The notes under the pieces: model-generated
What the model saw: only the letters and a program-made list of their open reading frames with translations
Database searches by the model: none
What the model was told of the DNA's origin: nothing
Part shown: one piece after another, positions 13,606 through 64,000 of the stretch
Layout: each line of letters opens with the position of its first letter
Numbering within the stretch: position 1 is the stretch's first letter
Position numbers and translations under genes: made by a program
IMG/VR virus record: IMGVR_UViG_3300020420_000671
From: a virus
Lineage: Duplodnaviria; Caudoviricetes
Direction: 5' to 3' (one strand)
Length of the DNA stretch: 64,000 bases

Positions 13606-13990
13606 GCTCAGGCTTATCGCTTTGGCTATCACCTGGAAACACTCTGTAATTATCTTCTACAGAATCAGCAGTACTTACTTCAGTTATAGAACTACCTCTT
13701 TCCATACAAACTAATTGATGAGGTTGTAATGGAGGATTTCTCCACGTATCTCCTGCCTTTAATTCTTGTTCGTGTAGTTCAGCAGTTTGCGTATCAATCC
13801 ATCTTAACAAGAATCTACCAGCATTGACAAACCAAGATTCGTCTTTTTCTCTGTGAAAGTGCATTGAAAACTTTGCTCCGAGCTTTTCAAATACCATAAT
13901 TTTACCGCAGTATTTTTCATTAGTTGCCCAGATTAGTTCATAACCCCAACCTTTTTCAACTCTACCTTCAAGTCTTTTTGTCATGTACAA
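13580..13990 (-). CDS. cupin-domain protein (sugar isomerase/epimerase-like)
   Basis: KGWGYELIW, FSMHFHREKDESWFV, HQLVC. Confidence 0.65.
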   Translation of the reverse strand: MYMTKRLEGRVEKGWGYELIWATNEKYCGKIMVFEKLGAKFSMHFHREKDESWFVNAGRFLLRWIDTQTAELHEQELKAGDTWRNPPLQPHQLVCMERGSSITEVSTADSVEDNYRVFPGDSQSDKPEPTPEPLPT

Positions 13991-14816
13991 TATCCTTTAG
14001 ATATTCATCTATAGTAATCCAATGCCTTATTGGTATAGTATTATGTATCTTAGTATTATCAGCACAAGTGTATTCCTGATACTGTCCTTTTAGGTGATCA
14101 GGCATATCTATGTACTCTATTTCAGCATCTTGTAATTTAGCAACTAATTTGGCAACAGTTTCAATATCTACAGGCTTACTAGTACCCAAATTGAATATAC
14201 CACTTATATCTTTTGACATCATTTCTTCGTGTATACGCACTACATCGTATACTGACACTAAATCTCTTTTGTATAGATGACTGTCTTTAAATAATTTAAT
14301 TTTTCCGGTCAGTGATGCTTGTTCTTGAAACTTGCTTACCATGCTTTGTTGATCTTTCTTATGTCCTTCTCCTGGACCATATACATTAAAGTATCTAAAA
14401 GATTGAACATTCATTTTAAATTGTGTAATATCATTGTCCAGTAAAAACTTATCAACTAGATATTTGCTCCAAGCATATGGTGTTTGCGGATAAACAGGAT
14501 CTGTTTCGCTAAACATTTCTTTCTTCAATGGTCCATATACTGCCGCTGTACTTGCTAATTGTATATTTGTTCCATAATGATCACATATTTGTAGTAGTCT
14601 CATGGTAAATTCGTAGTTGTGTCTCCAAACTTTATCTACATCTCTTTCTGTGGTATCCGAAATAGCTCCACAGTGAACTACCCAATCATACTGTTCAACA
14701 GCAGGAACTACGTTTTCTACCCAATCATAACCTTCTACTTCATGTCCTTTATGTAAAAGATATTGTGACATATGGCTTCCTATAAAGCCTTTGTGTCCTG
14801 TAACTAATACTTTCAT
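13968..14816 (-). CDS. hldD: ADP-L-glycero-D-manno-heptose 6-epimerase-like NAD-dependent epimerase
   Basis: VTGHKGFIG, HCGAISDTTE, ASTAAVYG, YAWSK (YxxxK), FRYFNVYGP.E.HK, KRDLVSV; adjacent to hldE. Confidence 0.8.
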   Translation of the reverse strand: MKVLVTGHKGFIGSHMSQYLLHKGHEVEGYDWVENVVPAVEQYDWVVHCGAISDTTERDVDKVWRHNYEFTMRLLQICDHYGTNIQLASTAAVYGPLKKEMFSETDPVYPQTPYAWSKYLVDKFLLDNDITQFKMNVQSFRYFNVYGPGEGHKKDQQSMVSKFQEQASLTGKIKLFKDSHLYKRDLVSVYDVVRIHEEMMSKDISGIFNLGTSKPVDIETVAKLVAKLQDAEIEYIDMPDHLKGQYQEYTCADNTKIHNTIPIRHWITIDEYLKDIVHDKKT

Positions 14817-16063
14817 TGTGTCATTTTTCCTATTATGTTTGTTGTACTATGTCCTTCTACTGTAGGAAATATAACCACTTCAGCCAAATGATTACCAACC
14901 ACTGTCTCTGGAATATAATCACCGCCTTTTACAATAATGTCTGGTTGTACCTTTTCCATAGTTTGTAAAGGAGTATCCTCATCAAAAATTACTACTTCGT
15001 CAATGAAACCAAGTTCCTCAAGGGCTTGTTTTCTAGTAAATTCATCATTGATAGGTCTTGTATCGCCTTTAATTCTTTTAACACTCGTATCACTGTTTAT
15101 GCCTACAACTAATTTATTACCAAGAGTTTTGGCATGTTTCAATAACTTTAAATGTCCAACGTGTAGTATATCAAATACACCATTTGTAAAAACTATTCCT
15201 GTGCTTAAATCTTTTGGAGTAATCACAGCTACGCCACGTTTTTCAACTATTCTAGCCGCGGCAAAACAGGCTAGTTTACACGATTCGAATATATCCAATC
15301 CTCTTTCTATTCCATAGGCAATGACAGATAACACAGTATCACCTGCTCCGGTTACATCAGCAACTTCTTTTACAGGTTCCATAAAATTTTTATATTGTCC
15401 TTGTTCATTTATCACATGTATACCATTGGCACCATCTGTAACGACCAACCAGTTCCATTTATGTTTACGCATATTCTCTAAAGCAGATTCTATTGTAAAT
15501 TCTCCAAACCATGATATGTATTCTTTCATATTTGGCTTTACTAAAAAAGCACCTGCGTAGATTTCTGGACTTTGTTTAGGATCTACTAGAACCTTACAAC
15601 CTTTTGAAACTAATTCTTGAACTGTATTCTCTTGAACAATTCCTTTGTTGTAATCACTTACACAAATTAAAGTGTTAGAAGTTGCGTCAATTAGCAATCT
15701 TTCATACGCTTCTGTACCTTTATAAACTTCTTCGTTGTCCCAACGTACAATGTGTTGGCCGTTTTGTCCAACTAATCTAGTTTTGGTTGTTGTAACCAAA
15801 TGATCTTTTACAACTCTAGCTTCTAAATCTGTATCTTCTAACAGTTCAAGTAGTTTATATCCCTCTTTGTCTTGTCCAACACTACCAAACAGCTTTACCT
15901 GTCCATTGATAGATTGGATATTAAGAGCCAAATTACCTGCTCCGCCTATGCTGAAATGTTGTGATTCTTCTAATAAGACTGGTACAGGAGCTTCGGGGCT
16001 TATCCTATCTGCGTTACCAACTATCCATCGGTCCAACATGATATCACCGTATACTATTATCAC
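14813..16063 (-). CDS. hldE: bifunctional heptose 7-phosphate kinase / heptose 1-phosphate adenylyltransferase
   Basis: YGDIMLDRW..G..DRISPEAPVPV, GGAGN, SDYNKG, DVTGAGDT, then FTNGVFDILHVGH (HxGH), KGGDY. Confidence 0.9.
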   Translation of the reverse strand: MIIVYGDIMLDRWIVGNADRISPEAPVPVLLEESQHFSIGGAGNLALNIQSINGQVKLFGSVGQDKEGYKLLELLEDTDLEARVVKDHLVTTTKTRLVGQNGQHIVRWDNEEVYKGTEAYERLLIDATSNTLICVSDYNKGIVQENTVQELVSKGCKVLVDPKQSPEIYAGAFLVKPNMKEYISWFGEFTIESALENMRKHKWNWLVVTDGANGIHVINEQGQYKNFMEPVKEVADVTGAGDTVLSVIAYGIERGLDIFESCKLACFAAARIVEKRGVAVITPKDLSTGIVFTNGVFDILHVGHLKLLKHAKTLGNKLVVGINSDTSVKRIKGDTRPINDEFTRKQALEELGFIDEVVIFDEDTPLQTMEKVQPDIIVKGGDYIPETVVGNHLAEVVIFPTVEGHSTTNIIGKMTQ

Positions 16064-37405: not shown

Positions 37406-37434
37406 TTGACTTTATAAATATTATCGTGTAGTAT
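37406..37434 (+). promoter_or_regulatory. sigma70-type promoter TTGACT-17-TAGTAT with embedded late box TATAAATA (37413-37420)
   Basis: Intergenic, before SSB gene. Confidence 0.75.
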
Positions 37435-57948: not shown

Positions 57949-58124
57949 TGGAGGAAGATTATCCTGACACAATAATATATGTAGATTCAGAAAGAGTTTG
58001 GTGTATGGGAGAAGACATGGATCACCCTAAAGTTTATTATACTGTACCTGAAGAAGGTTTTGTAGTTTGTGGCTATTGTGATATAAAATTTATGCGAAAG
58101 AAAAAGGAAGATGATAATGAATAA
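57936..58124 (+). CDS. zf-CHCC zinc-finger protein (NDUFS6-like)
   Basis: VWC.G....HPKVYY.......VCGYC = C-H-C-C arrangement. Confidence 0.75.
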
Positions 58125-58347
58125 GCCTAACACAACTTTTAAATTATCAATAAGAGATGTAGAAGTAATAGAACAAGCTCTTAGAAACAAAGCAGGAAGA
58201 AGAGGCATGGCTATAGCACAGGGAGATACATCACCAGAACTGAAAGCTGAGATGTATGAGATCCAAGATGTGCTTGGTAGAATACATGAACAGAAAAATT
58301 TTTATGCCAAATTCAAAGACGGCAAAACTCCTTATGTGAGCGGATAA
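58111..58347 (+). CDS. hypothetical protein
   Basis: Overlap-coupled ORF. Confidence 0.6.
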   Translation: MIMNKPNTTFKLSIRDVEVIEQALRNKAGRRGMAIAQGDTSPELKAEMYEIQDVLGRIHEQKNFYAKFKDGKTPYVSG

Positions 58348-59126
58348 TGAGAATTATAGCAGGACCTTGTCAACACGAAAGTATTTTAGAATCATTTGAG
58401 ATAGCATCTCATTGTAGAAGGATTTGTAAAGATTTAGGATTTGATTACTATTTTAAAGCAAGTTTTGACAAAGCAAATAGAAGCAGTAAGGACGGTATAC
58501 GCGGAATAGGTTTTGATAAGACAATGAAGGACTTTTACCTTATCAAAGAAAAACACGGTAACACTCTTAAAATACTTACGGATGTTCATACAGTAGAACA
58601 AGTAGAATCTATTAACAAAAACCACAGTGATGTAATAGACGTTTTACAGATACCTGCCTTCTTATGTAGGCAAACAGATTTAGTACAGGCGGCTTGTGCT
58701 ACTGGTAAAATAGTAAATATTAAGAAAGGACAATTTCTTGCTCCTTGGGACATCAAAGGCATCTTGTCTAAAACAGACGGTGCTAAAGAAGTTTGGATAA
58801 CTGAAAGGGGAACTAGCTTTGGATACAATACACTTGTTGTTGACTTTACCGGTCTTGACTATATGCTTAACAATTACGATAATGATATTATTTTTGATGT
58901 TACACACTCGGTTCAAAAACCAGGTGGTTTGGGTGGATCATCTGGCGGAAACAGAGAATACGTTCCCGGACTTGCTAGAGCAGGATCGGCACTAGGAATC
59001 AAAAACTTCTTCTTAGAAGTACATCGTGATCCAGACAATGCTCCTAGTGATGGACCAAACATGTTACACTTAAAAGATTTCGAAAGGACGATAAATGAAA
59101 TCAAAAGCTATTCTTATACCGGCTAG
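58347..59126 (+). CDS. kdsA: Kdo 8-phosphate synthase
   Basis: IAGPC, FKASFDKANRSS, TDVH, QIPAFLCRQTDL, NIKKGQF, ERG, FDVTHS, EVH..PD.APSDG. Confidence 0.95.
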   Translation: MRIIAGPCQHESILESFEIASHCRRICKDLGFDYYFKASFDKANRSSKDGIRGIGFDKTMKDFYLIKEKHGNTLKILTDVHTVEQVESINKNHSDVIDVLQIPAFLCRQTDLVQAACATGKIVNIKKGQFLAPWDIKGILSKTDGAKEVWITERGTSFGYNTLVVDFTGLDYMLNNYDNDIIFDVTHSVQKPGGLGGSSGGNREYVPGLARAGSALGIKNFFLEVHRDPDNAPSDGPNMLHLKDFERTINEIKSYSYTG

Positions 59127-59787
59127 GTTACACAGCACAAGGTATACTAATAAAATGCTTGTTGAATTAGATGGCAAGCCAATGATTAAACGTGTGTATG
59201 ATGCTTGTATGTCAACAGGTTATGATACATTTGTAATCACGGATAGCATGGAAATATTTTCTTTGTTTAATTCTGAAAATTGTTGGATAGAAGAAAAGCC
59301 ATATGAGAATGGAACGGCAAGATGTGCCGGAGCTATTTCAAATAGGTTTTTCAAAGCATATAATACTTTTATAAATGTACAAGGTGACATGCCAGATGTT
59401 ACACCTGAAATGATTAATCAATGTGTAGAATGGTTAAAATATTATTCAGTAAGTACAGTCTACACAACAATGCGGAAAGAAGAACAAGACAGACCAGAAA
59501 GCGTCAAAATGGTACGTGCTGGTGACAAGGCTCTTTGGTTTGGTAGAGGCATGACTGGTTATGGTGATTGGCATCTGGGTGTGTATGGATATAGACGAGA
59601 TGCTTTAGAAATGTATCCAAACTTAGAGATCCCAATTGAAGAAGATGTTGAGAAACTAGAACAACTACGTTGGTTAAAGAATGGCTGGGATATTGGTTGT
59701 TCACATGTTGAATTCAACGGAACCGAAATCAATACAAAAGAAGATATACACGAATGGAATTACAAGAATGGATTACTAAATGGTTGA
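59095..59787 (+). CDS. kdsB: CMP-Kdo synthetase-like cytidylyltransferase
   Basis: IPAR..STR..K, INVQGD, HLGVYGYR, EKLEQLRWL..G..I; INTKED in place of VDTxED. Confidence 0.85.
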   Translation: MKSKAILIPARLHSTRYTNKMLVELDGKPMIKRVYDACMSTGYDTFVITDSMEIFSLFNSENCWIEEKPYENGTARCAGAISNRFFKAYNTFINVQGDMPDVTPEMINQCVEWLKYYSVSTVYTTMRKEEQDRPESVKMVRAGDKALWFGRGMTGYGDWHLGVYGYRRDALEMYPNLEIPIEEDVEKLEQLRWLKNGWDIGCSHVEFNGTEINTKEDIHEWNYKNGLLNG

Positions 59788-59812
59788 CATTGAGCCGTAT
59801 ATGTATTATAAT
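59784..59812 (+). promoter_or_regulatory. perfect sigma70 consensus promoter TTGACA-17-TATAAT
   Basis: Read directly; 5 nt before ATG 59818. Confidence 0.88.
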
Positions 59813-59817
59813 AAGCT

Positions 59818-60273
59818 ATGAGTAAATTACCATTAAAAGACATACTTGCGGCAATTGATATGGGAGCCAAAGAAGTTTGGGACGAACTATCTGATGATGA
59901 ACGCAAACAAGTAAGTTTTTATCTTTTGAACAGATATGTAAGTTCACAAAAAGGTAATAGAGATAAACAAGAATTAGCAGTATTCAAAACAAATGAATAC
60001 TACAACAAAAACTTTTTTAATTTACAAAAACATAAAAAATTATTATGGCAACTTATTTGTATGTCTGGTAACACAAAAAACATACAGTATCATGAGTGGA
60101 TAGGATACAAAAAGAAAAACGGATCCAACAGTAAAAATGTAAAGTTTTTAGAAAAGTTATTTCCTAATATGAAAAAAGATGAGGTTGAGTTACTTGCTAG
60201 AATATCTACAAAAAAAGAACTGTTTGCCCTTGGAGAAGCATACGGAATGGATAAGAAAAGTGTCGGTATCTAA
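59818..60273 (+). CDS. clamp-loader small subunit-like protein (gp62-like)
   Basis: LKDILAAID, FYLLNRYVS, NEYYN, H.KLLWQL, QYHEWI resemble the gp62-type pattern. Confidence 0.5.
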   Translation: MSKLPLKDILAAIDMGAKEVWDELSDDERKQVSFYLLNRYVSSQKGNRDKQELAVFKTNEYYNKNFFNLQKHKKLLWQLICMSGNTKNIQYHEWIGYKKKNGSNSKNVKFLEKLFPNMKKDEVELLARISTKKELFALGEAYGMDKKSVGI

Positions 60274-60946
60274 ACCATACAAGTGTGAATACTGTGGTGC
60301 TAGTTTTACTAGAGAAAAAACACTATCAGTTCATATGTGTGAAAAGAAACGTAGACACTTACAAAAAAATGAAAAGCATGTACAGTTAGGCTATTATGGA
60401 TTTACAAGATTCTATAGATTAAGTGCTGGTACAAAAAATGAAAAAACATATGAACAATTTTGTGACAGTCCATATTACAATGCTTTCGTAAAATTTGGTA
60501 GTTGGCTAAACAATGTAAAGCCCTTGTACATGGAAAAGTATATTGACTGGGTAGTGACATCAGGAGTAAAACTAGATCATTGGTGTAGAGACGAACTATA
60601 TGAAAAATACGTTAATGAATTTGTATTGAAAGAAAGTATGGAAACAGCAGTAGAAAGAACTATAGACACAATGATGAATTGGGGAGAAGAAAAGGAAGCT
60701 CCATGGAATGATTATTTCCGACATGCTACATTAAACAGAGTGACCAGAGATATCAAGGATGGAAAGATAAGTCCATGGCTTATGCTTAACTGTTCATCCG
60801 GCAAACAGATGCTATCTCAATTCAATGATGAACAACTTGAATTTGTGTATACTGTTGTTGACCCAAAACATTGGGCTATGAAATTTAGAAAGAAACAAGC
60901 AGACGTAGAGATTGTAAAAGAAGTTGCCAAGGAATCAAAATTATGA
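60260..60946 (+). CDS. C2H2-type zinc-finger hypothetical protein
   Basis: KPYKCEYCGASFTREKTLSVHMC; GTG start at 60260 preferred over 60179. Confidence 0.65.
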   Translation: MSVSKPYKCEYCGASFTREKTLSVHMCEKKRRHLQKNEKHVQLGYYGFTRFYRLSAGTKNEKTYEQFCDSPYYNAFVKFGSWLNNVKPLYMEKYIDWVVTSGVKLDHWCRDELYEKYVNEFVLKESMETAVERTIDTMMNWGEEKEAPWNDYFRHATLNRVTRDIKDGKISPWLMLNCSSGKQMLSQFNDEQLEFVYTVVDPKHWAMKFRKKQADVEIVKEVAKESKL

Positions 60947-61509
60947 AGACTCACTTATTAGGAAACACACATCAATGGATTATTGAAAGCCACTATGAAG
61001 ATAAAGAAGAATTTGACTTTCATTGGGATAAGAAAGTATTTCCTAGCGACACTAGAGAAGATGTGAGTGATCAAACTAGCACATATCGTGGTAAGCAATT
61101 TAACATACATCCTGATGCGTATGTTAACGAATGGAAATTCAAACCGCATTTACAGGAACAGATTGATAAGGTAGGGTTGCCTATTAAAATTACAGACTTG
61201 TGTGCGTTATGGATTATTGAATACAAAAAAGGTGGCTGGCAGAAAGCACACAGACATAGTGACCCAAATGTAAAAAAGTTAAGTGCTGTTGTATATCTGT
61301 CAGATGCTGATCCAGACCCAACAACATTCCACGGAGGTACATTTGCTTATCTTTATGATGGAGAAGGTAATACACATGACTTGTGTTATAAGCCTAACAG
61401 AGGAGATTTATTGATATTTAAAAGCACGGTATTACACGGATCATATCCTGTAAGGGATAACAAAAAGGTATTTGTGGTGGACTATTTCTATGAGGATAAG
61501 TATGTATAA
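60943..61509 (+). CDS. putative 2OG-Fe(II) oxygenase
   Basis: WIIEYKKGGWQKAHRH, LSAVVYL, RGDLLIFKSTVLHGSYP, KKVFVVD. Confidence 0.7.
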   Translation: MKTHLLGNTHQWIIESHYEDKEEFDFHWDKKVFPSDTREDVSDQTSTYRGKQFNIHPDAYVNEWKFKPHLQEQIDKVGLPIKITDLCALWIIEYKKGGWQKAHRHSDPNVKKLSAVVYLSDADPDPTTFHGGTFAYLYDGEGNTHDLCYKPNRGDLLIFKSTVLHGSYPVRDNKKVFVVDYFYEDKYV

Positions 61510-61780
61510 AGTAGTTAAAAATTTTGTAAAGGAAAGCTACAACAACAGTAAAGTTGCTTTCTTCTGTGAAATGGCAGAAGCTACATTCTTAATAAGTGCC
61601 AGTGCTATACTCACGTATACGGTTTTGGCTCCTGCTACAAAAATCTTTATCCCTTTATACTTCGTTGGAAGCATACTTGGGATAATTAGTGCTATAATAA
61701 GAAGAGCGGCATTTGTGATAGTTCTTTGTTCTTGGTTTACTATTATGAATGCTATTGCGTTATGGAGGTTGTTTATATGA
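61502..61780 (+). CDS. small membrane protein
   Basis: Three hydrophobic segments. Confidence 0.65.
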   Translation: MYKVVKNFVKESYNNSKVAFFCEMAEATFLISASAILTYTVLAPATKIFIPLYFVGSILGIISAIIRRAAFVIVLCSWFTIMNAIALWRLFI

Positions 61781-62283
61781 AACTAGATCTAATAAAGTCG
61801 CCAAATGAATGGCTACAAAAGAAAATAGAACCAATGGATCTTAACAATATACCCGAAAACATTGTTGAGATAAAAAATGAAATGGATCGGGTAATGAAAG
61901 AAAATAAGGGCATAGGGCTCAGTGCTAATCAGGTTGGGCTAGATTATAGACTGTTTATTTTCCATGCTGAAGCATTACAAAATATCAGTGCTGAAAGAGT
62001 AAACATGTGTATTAATCCAGAAGTAATTGAATTTATTGAACCTGAAGTAGAAATGTGGGAAGGTTGCCTTAGTTTTCCAAAAGTAAATCTTTTCGTTAAA
62101 AGACATTCAAAGATTAGAGCAACGTGGACTAATGAAAACGGAAAGAAGATGGACGAAAAACTTTATGGTTACGATGCTAGATGTTTTTTACATGAACTAG
62201 ATCATTTGAACGGCATTACATTCGATAATTATGTATCACCAATTGAATTTAAAAAGGCACAGGAGAAAGCACAGGCTGAATGA
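61777..62283 (+). CDS. def: peptide deformylase
   Basis: GIGLSANQVG, EGCLS, HELDH; SD GGAGG before ATG 61777. Confidence 0.95.
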   Translation: MKLDLIKSPNEWLQKKIEPMDLNNIPENIVEIKNEMDRVMKENKGIGLSANQVGLDYRLFIFHAEALQNISAERVNMCINPEVIEFIEPEVEMWEGCLSFPKVNLFVKRHSKIRATWTNENGKKMDEKLYGYDARCFLHELDHLNGITFDNYVSPIEFKKAQEKAQAE

Positions 62284-62444
62284 GTCAACTAACTGAAAAA
62301 CAAGTAAGAGCAGAATACAAGGAGCATAGAAAAGATCCAGTATTCGCTGAGTGTTGGCCTGATACTAATCGTGCGTTTTATGAATGGTGTGAAGGATATT
62401 TAGATTACAAGCATATAAAGGCAAAAGAAAATGATGAAGACTGA
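62280..62444 (+). CDS. hypothetical protein (54 aa, below ORF-track cut-off)
   Basis: ATGA overlap with def stop; MSQLTEKQVRAEYKEHRKDPVFAECWPD...; fills the gap to nth. Confidence 0.6.
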   Translation: MSQLTEKQVRAEYKEHRKDPVFAECWPDTNRAFYEWCEGYLDYKHIKAKENDED

Positions 62445-63114
62445 ACAACAAATTAAAACAATATACGAACGACTAGGTGATTATTGGCCAAAGTATTCTA
62501 ATAAAAAGCCGGCGGCAAAGATACACAAGGAATCCTATACAAGTCTAATTGGAGTTATGTTGTCAGCTCAAAGCCAAGATAAAAGAACAGCAATAGCTTG
62601 TAAACAACTTTTCTCGTTAGCTGATAATCCATATGACATGCTAAAACTTACACAAGAAGAAATAATAGAAGCTATCAAACCGGCGGGACTTTACAACGCA
62701 AAATCAAAAAACATTTTAGCCACTTCAAAGGTATTGATAGAGAAGTATGATGGTAAAGTTCCACAAACACAAAAAGAATTAATGTCCTTACCAGGAGTTG
62801 GAAGAAAGAGCAGTGACATAATGATGAGATTTGTTTGGGGTGCTCCTAACATAGCAGTAGATACTCATGTGTTTAGATTGCTGTGGAGATTGGGTTGGAC
62901 CAACACACTGGACGAAGGGAAGAGTGCTGTGATAGTGAATGATACAACCCCTGACAAATACAAGTATGCGGCTCACATGCAATTAATTACTCATGCTAAA
63001 AGGATATGTAAAAGTAAAAAGCCTAAATGTAATATTTGTGTAATAGATGATATGTGTGATAAAAGACATATTGATGTTCCAAAATCTAAATTAAGAGAAG
63101 TAGTGTATGCCTGA
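62431..63114 (+). CDS. nth: endonuclease III (HhH-GPD glycosylase with 4Fe-4S)
   Basis: LSAQSQD, LPGVGRKS (catalytic Lys), AVDTHV (Asp), C-x6-C-x2-C-x5-C. Confidence 0.92.
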   Translation: MMKTEQQIKTIYERLGDYWPKYSNKKPAAKIHKESYTSLIGVMLSAQSQDKRTAIACKQLFSLADNPYDMLKLTQEEIIEAIKPAGLYNAKSKNILATSKVLIEKYDGKVPQTQKELMSLPGVGRKSSDIMMRFVWGAPNIAVDTHVFRLLWRLGWTNTLDEGKSAVIVNDTTPDKYKYAAHMQLITHAKRICKSKKPKCNICVIDDMCDKRHIDVPKSKLREVVYA

Positions 63115-63697
63115 TATTGATATAGACTTTGCTGATAGAACTGAAGTGCTAGGAAAACTAAAGCATAGGATTGCTAGACTTGATGAAAAGAAAAAACACA
63201 ATACTGGTGTATATGTGACAGAGATTCCGCATAATCCAATTGATATGTTATCTACTATTGATTATGAATCAGCAGAAGACAGAGGATATTTTAAATTAGA
63301 TTTTCTAAATGTCAGCATCTATGAAAAGGTAAAAGATGAAGATCATCTTAAAGAACTAATGAATAAGGAACCGATATGGGAACTGTTAGAGACAAAAGAC
63401 TTTTGCGATCTGGTATTTCATGTATCAGGACATCACACACTAATCAAAAAATTAAAACCAAAGAACAAAGAACAACTGGCCGCTGTATTGGCTATCATAA
63501 GACCAGCAAAGAGACATCTTCAAGATAGTAACTGGGAAGATATCTTCAAGGAGGTTTGGGTAAAACCTAAAGAAGGATATTATTTTAAAAAAGCTCACGC
63601 AGTAGCATACGCCCATGCTATTGTTGTACACATGAATTTAATCTGCGAGGAACTTAATGGATTGGGAAGTAAAAGACTACAGAAAGAAACCGCCTAA
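63107..63697 (+). CDS. minimal DnaE/Pol III alpha-like nucleotidyltransferase (196 aa)
   Basis: PDIDIDF, KHNTGV, KLDFL, IIRP, YYFKKAHAVAY in DnaE order with thumb and most fingers missing. Confidence 0.8.
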   Translation: MPDIDIDFADRTEVLGKLKHRIARLDEKKKHNTGVYVTEIPHNPIDMLSTIDYESAEDRGYFKLDFLNVSIYEKVKDEDHLKELMNKEPIWELLETKDFCDLVFHVSGHHTLIKKLKPKNKEQLAAVLAIIRPAKRHLQDSNWEDIFKEVWVKPKEGYYFKKAHAVAYAHAIVVHMNLICEELNGLGSKRLQKETA

Positions 63698-63899
63698 AAA
63701 AGAAGTGGACTGGATAGACTGGCAAGTACCGAGAGAAATGGCAAGTCAGTATATATGGAGAATGATTTTCTGGGTTTTGCTGATGCCGTTAATTTTCTTC
63801 GGACAATTCTATGTTAACGCTTCTTACTTATTGATGCTAGTTTTTCTTGTAGACTATACTTCTTACCTACGTTGGAAGCAGGGCGATGATCAGCTTTAA
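63657..63899 (+). CDS. small membrane protein
   Basis: Hydrophobic C-terminal half; overlap-coupled. Confidence 0.5.
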   Translation: MDWEVKDYRKKPPKKEVDWIDWQVPREMASQYIWRMIFWVLLMPLIFFGQFYVNASYLLMLVFLVDYTSYLRWKQGDDQL

Positions 63900-64000
63900 A
63901 TCCTTTTTTACTACCGTCAGGATTGTATCCTAACCTCGTATATAGCTCGGCTATTTTACTTTTTATATTATGGACTCTTTCTTCTAGATTCATCTTGGCT

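Follow-up and report, generated by a model that had tools for sequence, protein, structure and literature searches.

Which enzyme is specified by an open reading frame (ORF) that carries the catalytic motifs of the DNA polymerase III alpha subunit (Pol III alpha, DnaE) on a chain of 196 residues? This question is raised by a gene close to the end of a 64,000-nucleotide stretch of viral DNA (Duplodnaviria; Caudoviricetes; IMG/VR virus record IMGVR_UViG_3300020420_000671), the whole of which is referred to here as the window. An earlier reading made without database searches (the sequence-only reading) had considered the product a minimal and self-sufficient Pol III alpha core coupled to the endonuclease III gene nth directly upstream. 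The ORF, its DnaE motifs (PDIDIDF at residues 2-8, KHNTGV at 30-35, KLDFL at 63-67, IIRP at 130-133 and YYFKKAHAVAY at 158-168) and an 8-nt overlap with nth were all confirmed, with the chain opening directly at the metal-binding DxD strand (MPDIDIDF, residues 1-8). Nevertheless, the ORF very probably encodes the C-terminal subunit (C-half) of a two-piece C-family polymerase core of about 375 residues, which is carried beside a family B replicase and is completed by a separate N-terminal subunit (N-half). This assignment is based on homology, an exact split point, residue conservation, co-occurrence of the two halves, a natural fusion and a predicted heterodimer. The kind of enzyme is already published: in the group 2.2 jumbo phages, a phage-specific minimal Pol III alpha was described as split and as standing beside a family B polymerase (Iyer, Anantharaman, Krishnan, Burroughs and Aravind, 2021, Viruses 13:63, PMC7824862). 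The remark in the sequence-only reading that such genes had been noted in T4-related jumbo phages was right, and the window gene is a further member of this kind from an uncultured marine lineage.

Homology places the ORF in a large and well-conserved family. Its residues 3-182 match positions 8-194 of phrog_11778 (annotated 'DNA polymerase', a profile of 197 positions) with E 9.2e-61, and residues 46-134 match positions 578-678 of the DnaE-type family phrog_405, which comprises 1190 positions. With Pfam, the DNA_pol3_finger domain was recognized weakly (E 0.015) and no PHP match was obtained on the 196-aa ORF. The C-half is matched by more than 8000 clusters of metagenomic proteins (90% identity), most of them marine and 183-197 aa in length, and by 418 representatives at 50% identity. 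Besides, the C-half occurs in 96 phage records, including those of the PA5oct, Atu_ph07, Phosso, Rak2/121Q/PBECO4 and XbC2 types, with identities of 27-53% among the 60 matches listed. At the nucleotide level, a megablast comparison of positions 58000-64000 with phage records returned no match. In a conservation sample of 76 diverse C-halves, which are 28-86% identical to the window protein, D3, D5, K63, D65, R132 and P133 are kept without exception, and D7, H31 and H164 are kept in 75. All three catalytic aspartates, whose retention had been inferred from the single sequence, are thus invariant. A decayed pseudogene, already doubted on the basis of the clean deletions, was ruled out by this conservation across homologues.

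The derivation from DnaE, likewise proposed before, holds in both profile and structural alignments with the Escherichia coli alpha subunit. A profile of the 76 homologues aligns residues 54-139 with E. coli alpha 539-641, a region which includes K553, D555 and the RP motif, and residues 153-179 with alpha 742-769, which includes FNKSH. D3, D5 and D65 are the equivalents of the three palm aspartates D401, D403 and D555, and H164 is the counterpart of the steric gate H760. D7 corresponds to the DnaE-type D405, the extra aspartate that distinguishes DnaE from PolC (PMC3919608). An AlphaFold2 (AF2) model of the C-half, built from the 76-row alignment, reached a mean predicted local distance difference test score (pLDDT) of 96 and a predicted template modelling score (pTM) of 0.88. 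The comparison of this model with known structures yielded C-family polymerases only: the top 13 Foldseek matches are all DnaE structures, and the top 14 rows of VIA-align are all DnaE or PolC, followed by an unrelated row at only Z 3.4. The best match is the Taq DnaE ternary complex 3e0d (Z 9.5, root-mean-square deviation 3.8, 186 residues aligned); together with 3f2c and 5lew (Z 9.3 and 9.2), 186-193 residues are aligned over the palm and fingers fold. On E. coli 2hnh (Z 8.6), model residues 1-186 fall on alpha 400-784, so that 186 residues cover what E. coli does in 385. Compared with E. coli alpha, a hairpin stands in place of the thumb (approximately 433-510), and the fingers have lost about 100 residues (approximately 642-741). 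The domain losses that had been read from the sequence (PHP, thumb, clamp-binding part and OB, along with much of the fingers) were borne out.

Of the earlier view of a minimal and self-sufficient core, the first part stands and the second does not, as the N-terminal half of the palm with its GS motif is a separate protein of approximately 170-185 aa. The palm is not formed by one chain: the C-half starts after the GS motif, and positions 20-95 of PF07733 sit on another protein. The split enzyme is represented by two PHROG families, with the C-half in 11778 and the N-half in 11127. A PF07733 search of the cultured phages Atu_ph07, Paride, 121Q and Phosso revealed exactly one N-half match per genome, covering positions of about 16-98 of 260 and separated from the C-half by tens to hundreds of kb. 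In the IMG/VR contig G001 (237 kb), the N-half at 183454-183681 matches PF07733 positions 20-95 and the C-half at 61189-61485 matches positions 96-196, so the two are exactly complementary although they lie 122 kb apart. The separately encoded GS-motif partner that the sequence-only reading had envisaged was hence found in all four cultured relatives and in G001, but not within the window. That reading had also named a piece of a split full-length DnaE as an outcome that would refute it. The result comes close to this, except that the complete enzyme, at about 375 aa, is minimal rather than full-length.

The N-half ORFs have 169-185 aa, carry WGxGRGS and end in EFL[KRNE], with an extra final W in 121Q. 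In E. coli alpha, the sequence FERFLN, which is homologous to this end, is found a few residues ahead of PDFDVDF. A Met-Pro-Asp start was observed in all 80 marine C-halves examined. Since the N-halves end with EFL[KRNE] and the C-halves start with Met-Pro-Asp, the split is read as lying at one fixed point. In the N-half, marine and cultured members alike keep GxGRGS without exception. A natural fusion is represented by P0237, a metagenomic protein of 375 aa in which N-half, a 10-residue linker and C-half are collinear and the PF07733 match (positions 12-121) spans the junction; this single-chain protein could be a ready-made construct for biochemistry. The N-half is abundant as well, its clusters at 90% identity also numbering more than 8000, and the two halves co-occur in phage records: counted by host genus (C-half/N-half), Escherichia has 34/34, Erwinia 8/8, Salmonella 8/8, Xanthomonas 4/4, Yersinia 4/4 and Klebsiella 11/10.

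Both halves were additionally observed in the Alishewanella phage vB_AspM_Slickus01 (OQ508957.1, 141.6 kb), at 68424-68918 and 79814-80056, 11 kb apart. This genome lies below the jumbo threshold and has both halves, and thus the split enzyme is not confined to genomes above 200 kb.

The association of the two halves was modelled with the window C-half and the N-half of G001, a non-cognate partner from a related phage; the N-half alignment was used without four proteins whose sole source is GenBank phage records. The model obtained an interface score (ipSAE) of 0.91, compared with 0.01 for the best of three controls. The mark applied is reached by 58 of 80 solved complexes and by 2 of 110 mismatched pairs, which is only a rough calibration for the custom alignments used here. 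The runs share at least 98% of contacts, with a partner pLDDT of at least 87. In the model, C-half residues 2-9 contact partner residues 146-159, with the tightest contacts between residues 6-8 of the DxD strand and partner residues 150-152 of the strand preceding GRGS. Tight contacts are also predicted between the FKKSH helix (161-174) and the helix following the GS motif of the partner. Thus, the prediction supports binding of the two halves to each other. The contacts are the same as inside one solved DnaE chain, and the pass of the complex may therefore reflect likeness to DnaE structures. Modelled alone with AF2, the N-half showed a mean pLDDT of 62 and values below 50 in the GS region, from an alignment of 33 rows that are mostly more than 70% identical. 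As this shallow alignment may cause the low values, they were not counted as a need of the partner for folding.

In the proposed mechanism, the C-half would contribute all three aspartates that bind metal, the lysine adjacent to the third of them and a trimmed fingers element, which carries the R-P motif and the FKKSH helix with its histidine as the deoxyribose steric gate. The distant N-half of approximately 170-185 aa would supply the helix-GxGRGS, triphosphate-binding half of the Pol-beta-like palm. Both halves would join by completing one beta-sheet, in which the DxDxD strand of the C-half is placed against the partner strand before GRGS, and a single active site would be restored by this completion. 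The heterodimer would presumably be an active, distributive, DNA-templated DNA polymerase lacking proofreading, and it would be made early, for replication (primer extension or fork gap filling) or for repair. A family B polymerase (PolB) was found in five of five relatives. Most likely, an aspartate-dependent, dNTP-selective and distributive polymerase, active only as heterodimer, would serve the PolB replisome or repair.

The first alternative to be weighed is that of a self-sufficient 196-aa polymerase which, coupled to endonuclease III, fills the one-nucleotide gap of base-excision repair like Pol beta. This is highly improbable, even though nth appears to be intact and shares 8 nt with the start of the polymerase gene. 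Its translation contains the GVGRK lysine, the AVDTH aspartate and CKSKKPKCNICVIDDMC, a C-x6-C-x2-C-x5-C cluster, and Pfam matches were obtained to HhH-GPD PF00730 (E 3.9e-18), HHH (E 1.5e-5) and, at only E 0.036, EndIII_4Fe-2S. Moreover, nth stands at exactly this position in three separate C-half clades and is 84-92% identical between clades whose C-halves share 68-72% (including L027, L031, L059 and L074). However, the GS triphosphate-binding half of the palm is a separate gene, and the linkage with nth in relatives proved sporadic. In a survey of 80 IMG/VR loci with the C-half and of the four cultured relatives, nth lies directly upstream in six loci (L027, L028, L031, L033, L059 and L074) and within 5 kb of the C-half in none of the cultured phages. 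A search of the complete Atu_ph07 and 121Q records yielded no HhH-GPD gene, and the one in G001 lies more than 40 kb from either half. Locus L019, whose C-half and peptide deformylase (PDF) are 97 and 98% identical to those of the window, is devoid of nth, and the small ORF orf54 abuts the C-half there with the same overlap; the P0016 lineage (79% identical) likewise has no nth at the C-half. The overlap, which had been taken as a sign of partnership, belongs to the start of the polymerase gene, whatever gene is placed upstream: ATGCCTGA opens the C-half gene in 58 of 80 related loci, and the 8-nt overlap is also formed by PDF, orf54 and other upstream ORFs. It is not specific for nth because Met-Pro-Asp, encoded as ATG CCT GAY, contains TGA. 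In addition, the zone that holds nth has also taken up a 2-oxoglutarate (2OG) oxygenase and PDF. On a maximum-likelihood tree of the C-half, the presence of nth takes at least three gains or losses, which are forced by well-supported branches, and nth is always found at the same junction. Judged from these comparisons, nth looks like a cargo gene exchanged laterally at a fixed hotspot, and its closer likeness than that of the flanking C-halves fits lateral cassette exchange. The overlap is then apparently the outcome of local gene insertion and not of a conserved partnership, and the neighbour one of several cargo genes in a variable upstream zone and not an obligate partner. A facultative link may exist in the few lineages that carry nth. 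As a general rule, a stand-alone polymerase coupled to nth in base-excision repair is largely refuted, which removes this reading and leaves the gene assigned to the published kind.

The remaining alternatives accept the family assignment and differ in what the protein would do. A heterodimer that is active other than as a templated DNA polymerase, for instance as terminal transferase, primer-synthesising enzyme or nucleotide-signal synthase, is quite improbable. Such roles are common among other Pol-beta-fold nucleotidyltransferases, and the thumb, most DNA-holding parts and the clamp contacts are gone. A full PolB replisome is moreover present beside the enzyme, to which a second compact DnaE is added in this phage. 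Against this, DnaE-specific fingers elements are kept beyond the generic palm, with R132-P133 present in every homologue sampled, and the structural matches are C-family polymerases only. Very little likelihood is attributed to a non-catalytic DnaE remnant, kept as a structural or regulatory protein that binds other replisome parts. The extreme size reduction and the constant placement near primase and helicase genes would agree with it; yet the metal ligands and substrate-contacting residues are invariant in homologues down to 28% identity, as is the GS motif of the partner, a pattern that is not expected of an inactive scaffold. As regards the role within replication, it is rather unlikely, although conceivable by analogy, that the split core is a dedicated primer-extension (hand-off) polymerase of the PolB replisome. 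Primers from the neighbouring DnaG-type primase would be extended and the family B replicase would take over the short DNA stretches, much as PolC takes over from DnaE in Bacillus and Pol delta from Pol alpha in eukaryotes, and the location of the halves in different transcription units would gate activity in time.

Several points weigh against the two-piece polymerase core. In the 64-kb window, tblastn and an N-half profile over six frames gave a best N-half score of only E 1.3, and an N-half of this phage itself is expected from its relatives. The partner in the modelled complex is non-cognate, with the C-half of G001 being 69% identical to that of the window. The thumb, about 100 fingers residues and any clamp-binding or OB parts are missing, and with them most of the parts that would hold DNA. 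Likewise, a contiguous 542-aa PHP-less DnaE is encoded beside DnaB in this phage, which makes the need for a split enzyme less than obvious. A literature search on the split enzyme found no experimental work, and nothing on this protein beyond the 2021 description.

The 542-aa DnaE is located on contig L005, which carries the same C-half protein and extends beyond the window end. It lies at 13862-15490, about 6.4 kb past the end of the window, right after DnaB and between two nitrilase genes, and has a complete PF07733 match (E 3.7e-41, positions 19-260) as well as a finger domain. It was considered as the missing part of the C-half and rejected, as it possesses a complete palm of its own and shares about 24% identity with the split halves in motif regions only; for the latter reason it is also not regarded as a recent paralogue of them. 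Like the split enzyme, it is a C-family core without PHP in the same replication region beside DnaB. Unlike the split enzyme, it consists of one chain with longer fingers and a C-terminal extension, and its DxD and HxGG strands are separated by about 80 residues. No contiguous DnaE match was found in the four cultured relatives, and no PHP match over the Pfam cut-off in the five relatives searched. According to the published description, no PHP or other Pol III domains accompany the split enzyme (Iyer et al., 2021, PMC7824862); this phage departs from it, as its 542-aa DnaE has a finger domain.

In comparison with known systems, the group 2.2 split Pol III alpha agrees with the window copy in family, split point, residue set, neighbours and company (DnaG-type primase and DnaB, with PolB as judged from relatives). 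The window copy differs from the cultured group 2.2 members by its origin in a marine, uncultured lineage with a very high abundance of the family, by the variable cargo zone with nth just upstream and by the extra 542-aa DnaE of the phage. With bacterial DnaE (E. coli 2HNH, Taq 3E0D), the enzyme shares the Pol-beta-like palm, D401/D403/D555, K553, the RP motif and the FNKSH steric-gate helix. The bacterial protein has about 1160 aa on one chain, whereas the phage enzyme has about 375 aa on two and is without PHP, thumb, mid-fingers, clamp-binding domain and OB. In Bacillus subtilis, DnaE is the primer-extending partner of PolC. The analogy with the phage enzyme would be a functional one only: in both cases, a C-family polymerase accompanies another main replicase, along with a primase of the DnaG type and a helicase of the DnaB type. 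The main replicase of the phage, however, is presumably of family B.

The split family represents the smallest known C-family polymerase core, cut exactly between the NTP-binding and the metal-binding halves of the palm, and is very common in ocean viromes as well as conserved from marine to enterobacterial jumbo phages. Activity in a cultured relative would reveal the role of an additional polymerase in a T4-type replisome and would also show how little of DnaE suffices for catalysis.

The features around the C-half gene are compiled in Table 1. The genes from 59818 to 63899 form a tightly packed string on the + strand that is opened by the 151-aa gene, and no terminator-like site was found between the promoter consensus and the C-half. 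The consensus match suggests early transcription of this string. The zinc finger of the 255-aa ORF scored E 2e-4 for zf-C2H2, under the Pfam cut-off, and is missed in metagenome gene calls because these start the ORF 52 codons later.

Table 1. Coordinates of the C-half gene and of its upstream and overlapping features in the window.
Feature	Position	Strand	Remarks
sigma-70 consensus TTGACA-17-TATAAT	59784..59812	+	12/12 match; 6 nt upstream of the 151-aa gene; possible early promoter
phrog_11758 and phrog_11058 genes	59818..60946	+	conserved core, 151 aa and 255 aa; PHROG E 8e-17 and 1e-61
phrog_11058 ORF	60179-60946	+	255 aa; N-terminal C2H2-like zinc finger YKCEYCGASFTREKTLSVHMC
2OG-Fe(II) oxygenase	60943-61509	+	Pfam on L005 gene calls; putative cargo
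small membrane ORF	within 60943..62283	+	between 2OG oxygenase and PDF; putative cargo
peptide deformylase (PDF)	61774-62283	+	Pep_deformylase E 1.3e-40; putative cargo
orf54	62280..62444	+	54 aa; adjoins the C-half directly in L019
endonuclease III (nth)	62431..63114	+	227 aa; apparently intact; sporadic putative cargo upstream of the C-half
nth stop/C-half start overlap	63107..63114	+	8 nt, ATGCCTGA
polymerase C-half	63107..63697	+	196 aa; phrog_11778; half with the Mg2+- and template-binding motifs; catalytic D3, D5, D65; K63, R132-P133, K161/K162, steric-gate H164
predicted membrane ORF	63657..63899	+	80 aa; overlaps the C-half 3' end

In cultured relatives (tblastn, L001-L004), homologues of phrog_11758 and phrog_11058 directly precede the C-half, with the oxygenase, the membrane ORF and PDF being absent between the phrog_11058 gene and the C-half. 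As the ancestral order would be phrog_11758, phrog_11058 and C-half, the five window genes in between (2OG oxygenase, small membrane ORF, PDF, orf54 and nth) are interpreted as a variable cargo zone beside a conserved replication block. The products of phrog_11758 and phrog_11058 are possible further partners of the C-half. In the P0016 relatives, a 77-aa ORF is called where the window has the 80-aa membrane ORF. Beyond the window end, L005 features a reverse 122-aa phrog_11637 gene, a 254-aa putative structural protein, a DnaG-type primase, small genes, DnaB, a nitrilase gene and the 542-aa DnaE. The conserved block thus reads phrog_11758, phrog_11058 and C-half, followed by the reverse phrog_11637, the structural protein and the primase, with DnaB further on, and is kept from marine to enterobacterial phages; its part from C-half to primase is common to all four cultured phages.

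With regard to late transcription signals, the T4 late octamer TATAAATA occurs once in the window (at 37413) and not near the C-half gene. Shuffled sequences contained 9.3 +/- 3.1 copies, with at least one copy in all 100 shuffles, and the octamer is markedly depleted in the window for a T4-related phage.

The N-half locus of marine relatives shows an order of its own. The N-half is flanked by a large He_PIG protein on one side and by Cpn10-like, MazG and NT5C genes on the other; at L103:4001-6531, the genes after the N-half are a 132-aa ORF, a Cpn10/GroES-like gene, MazG and an NT5C 5'-nucleotidase gene. In G001, Paride and 121Q, too, the N-half precedes a small ORF and then an ORF of about 110-140 aa, which appears GroES-like by eye in these genomes.

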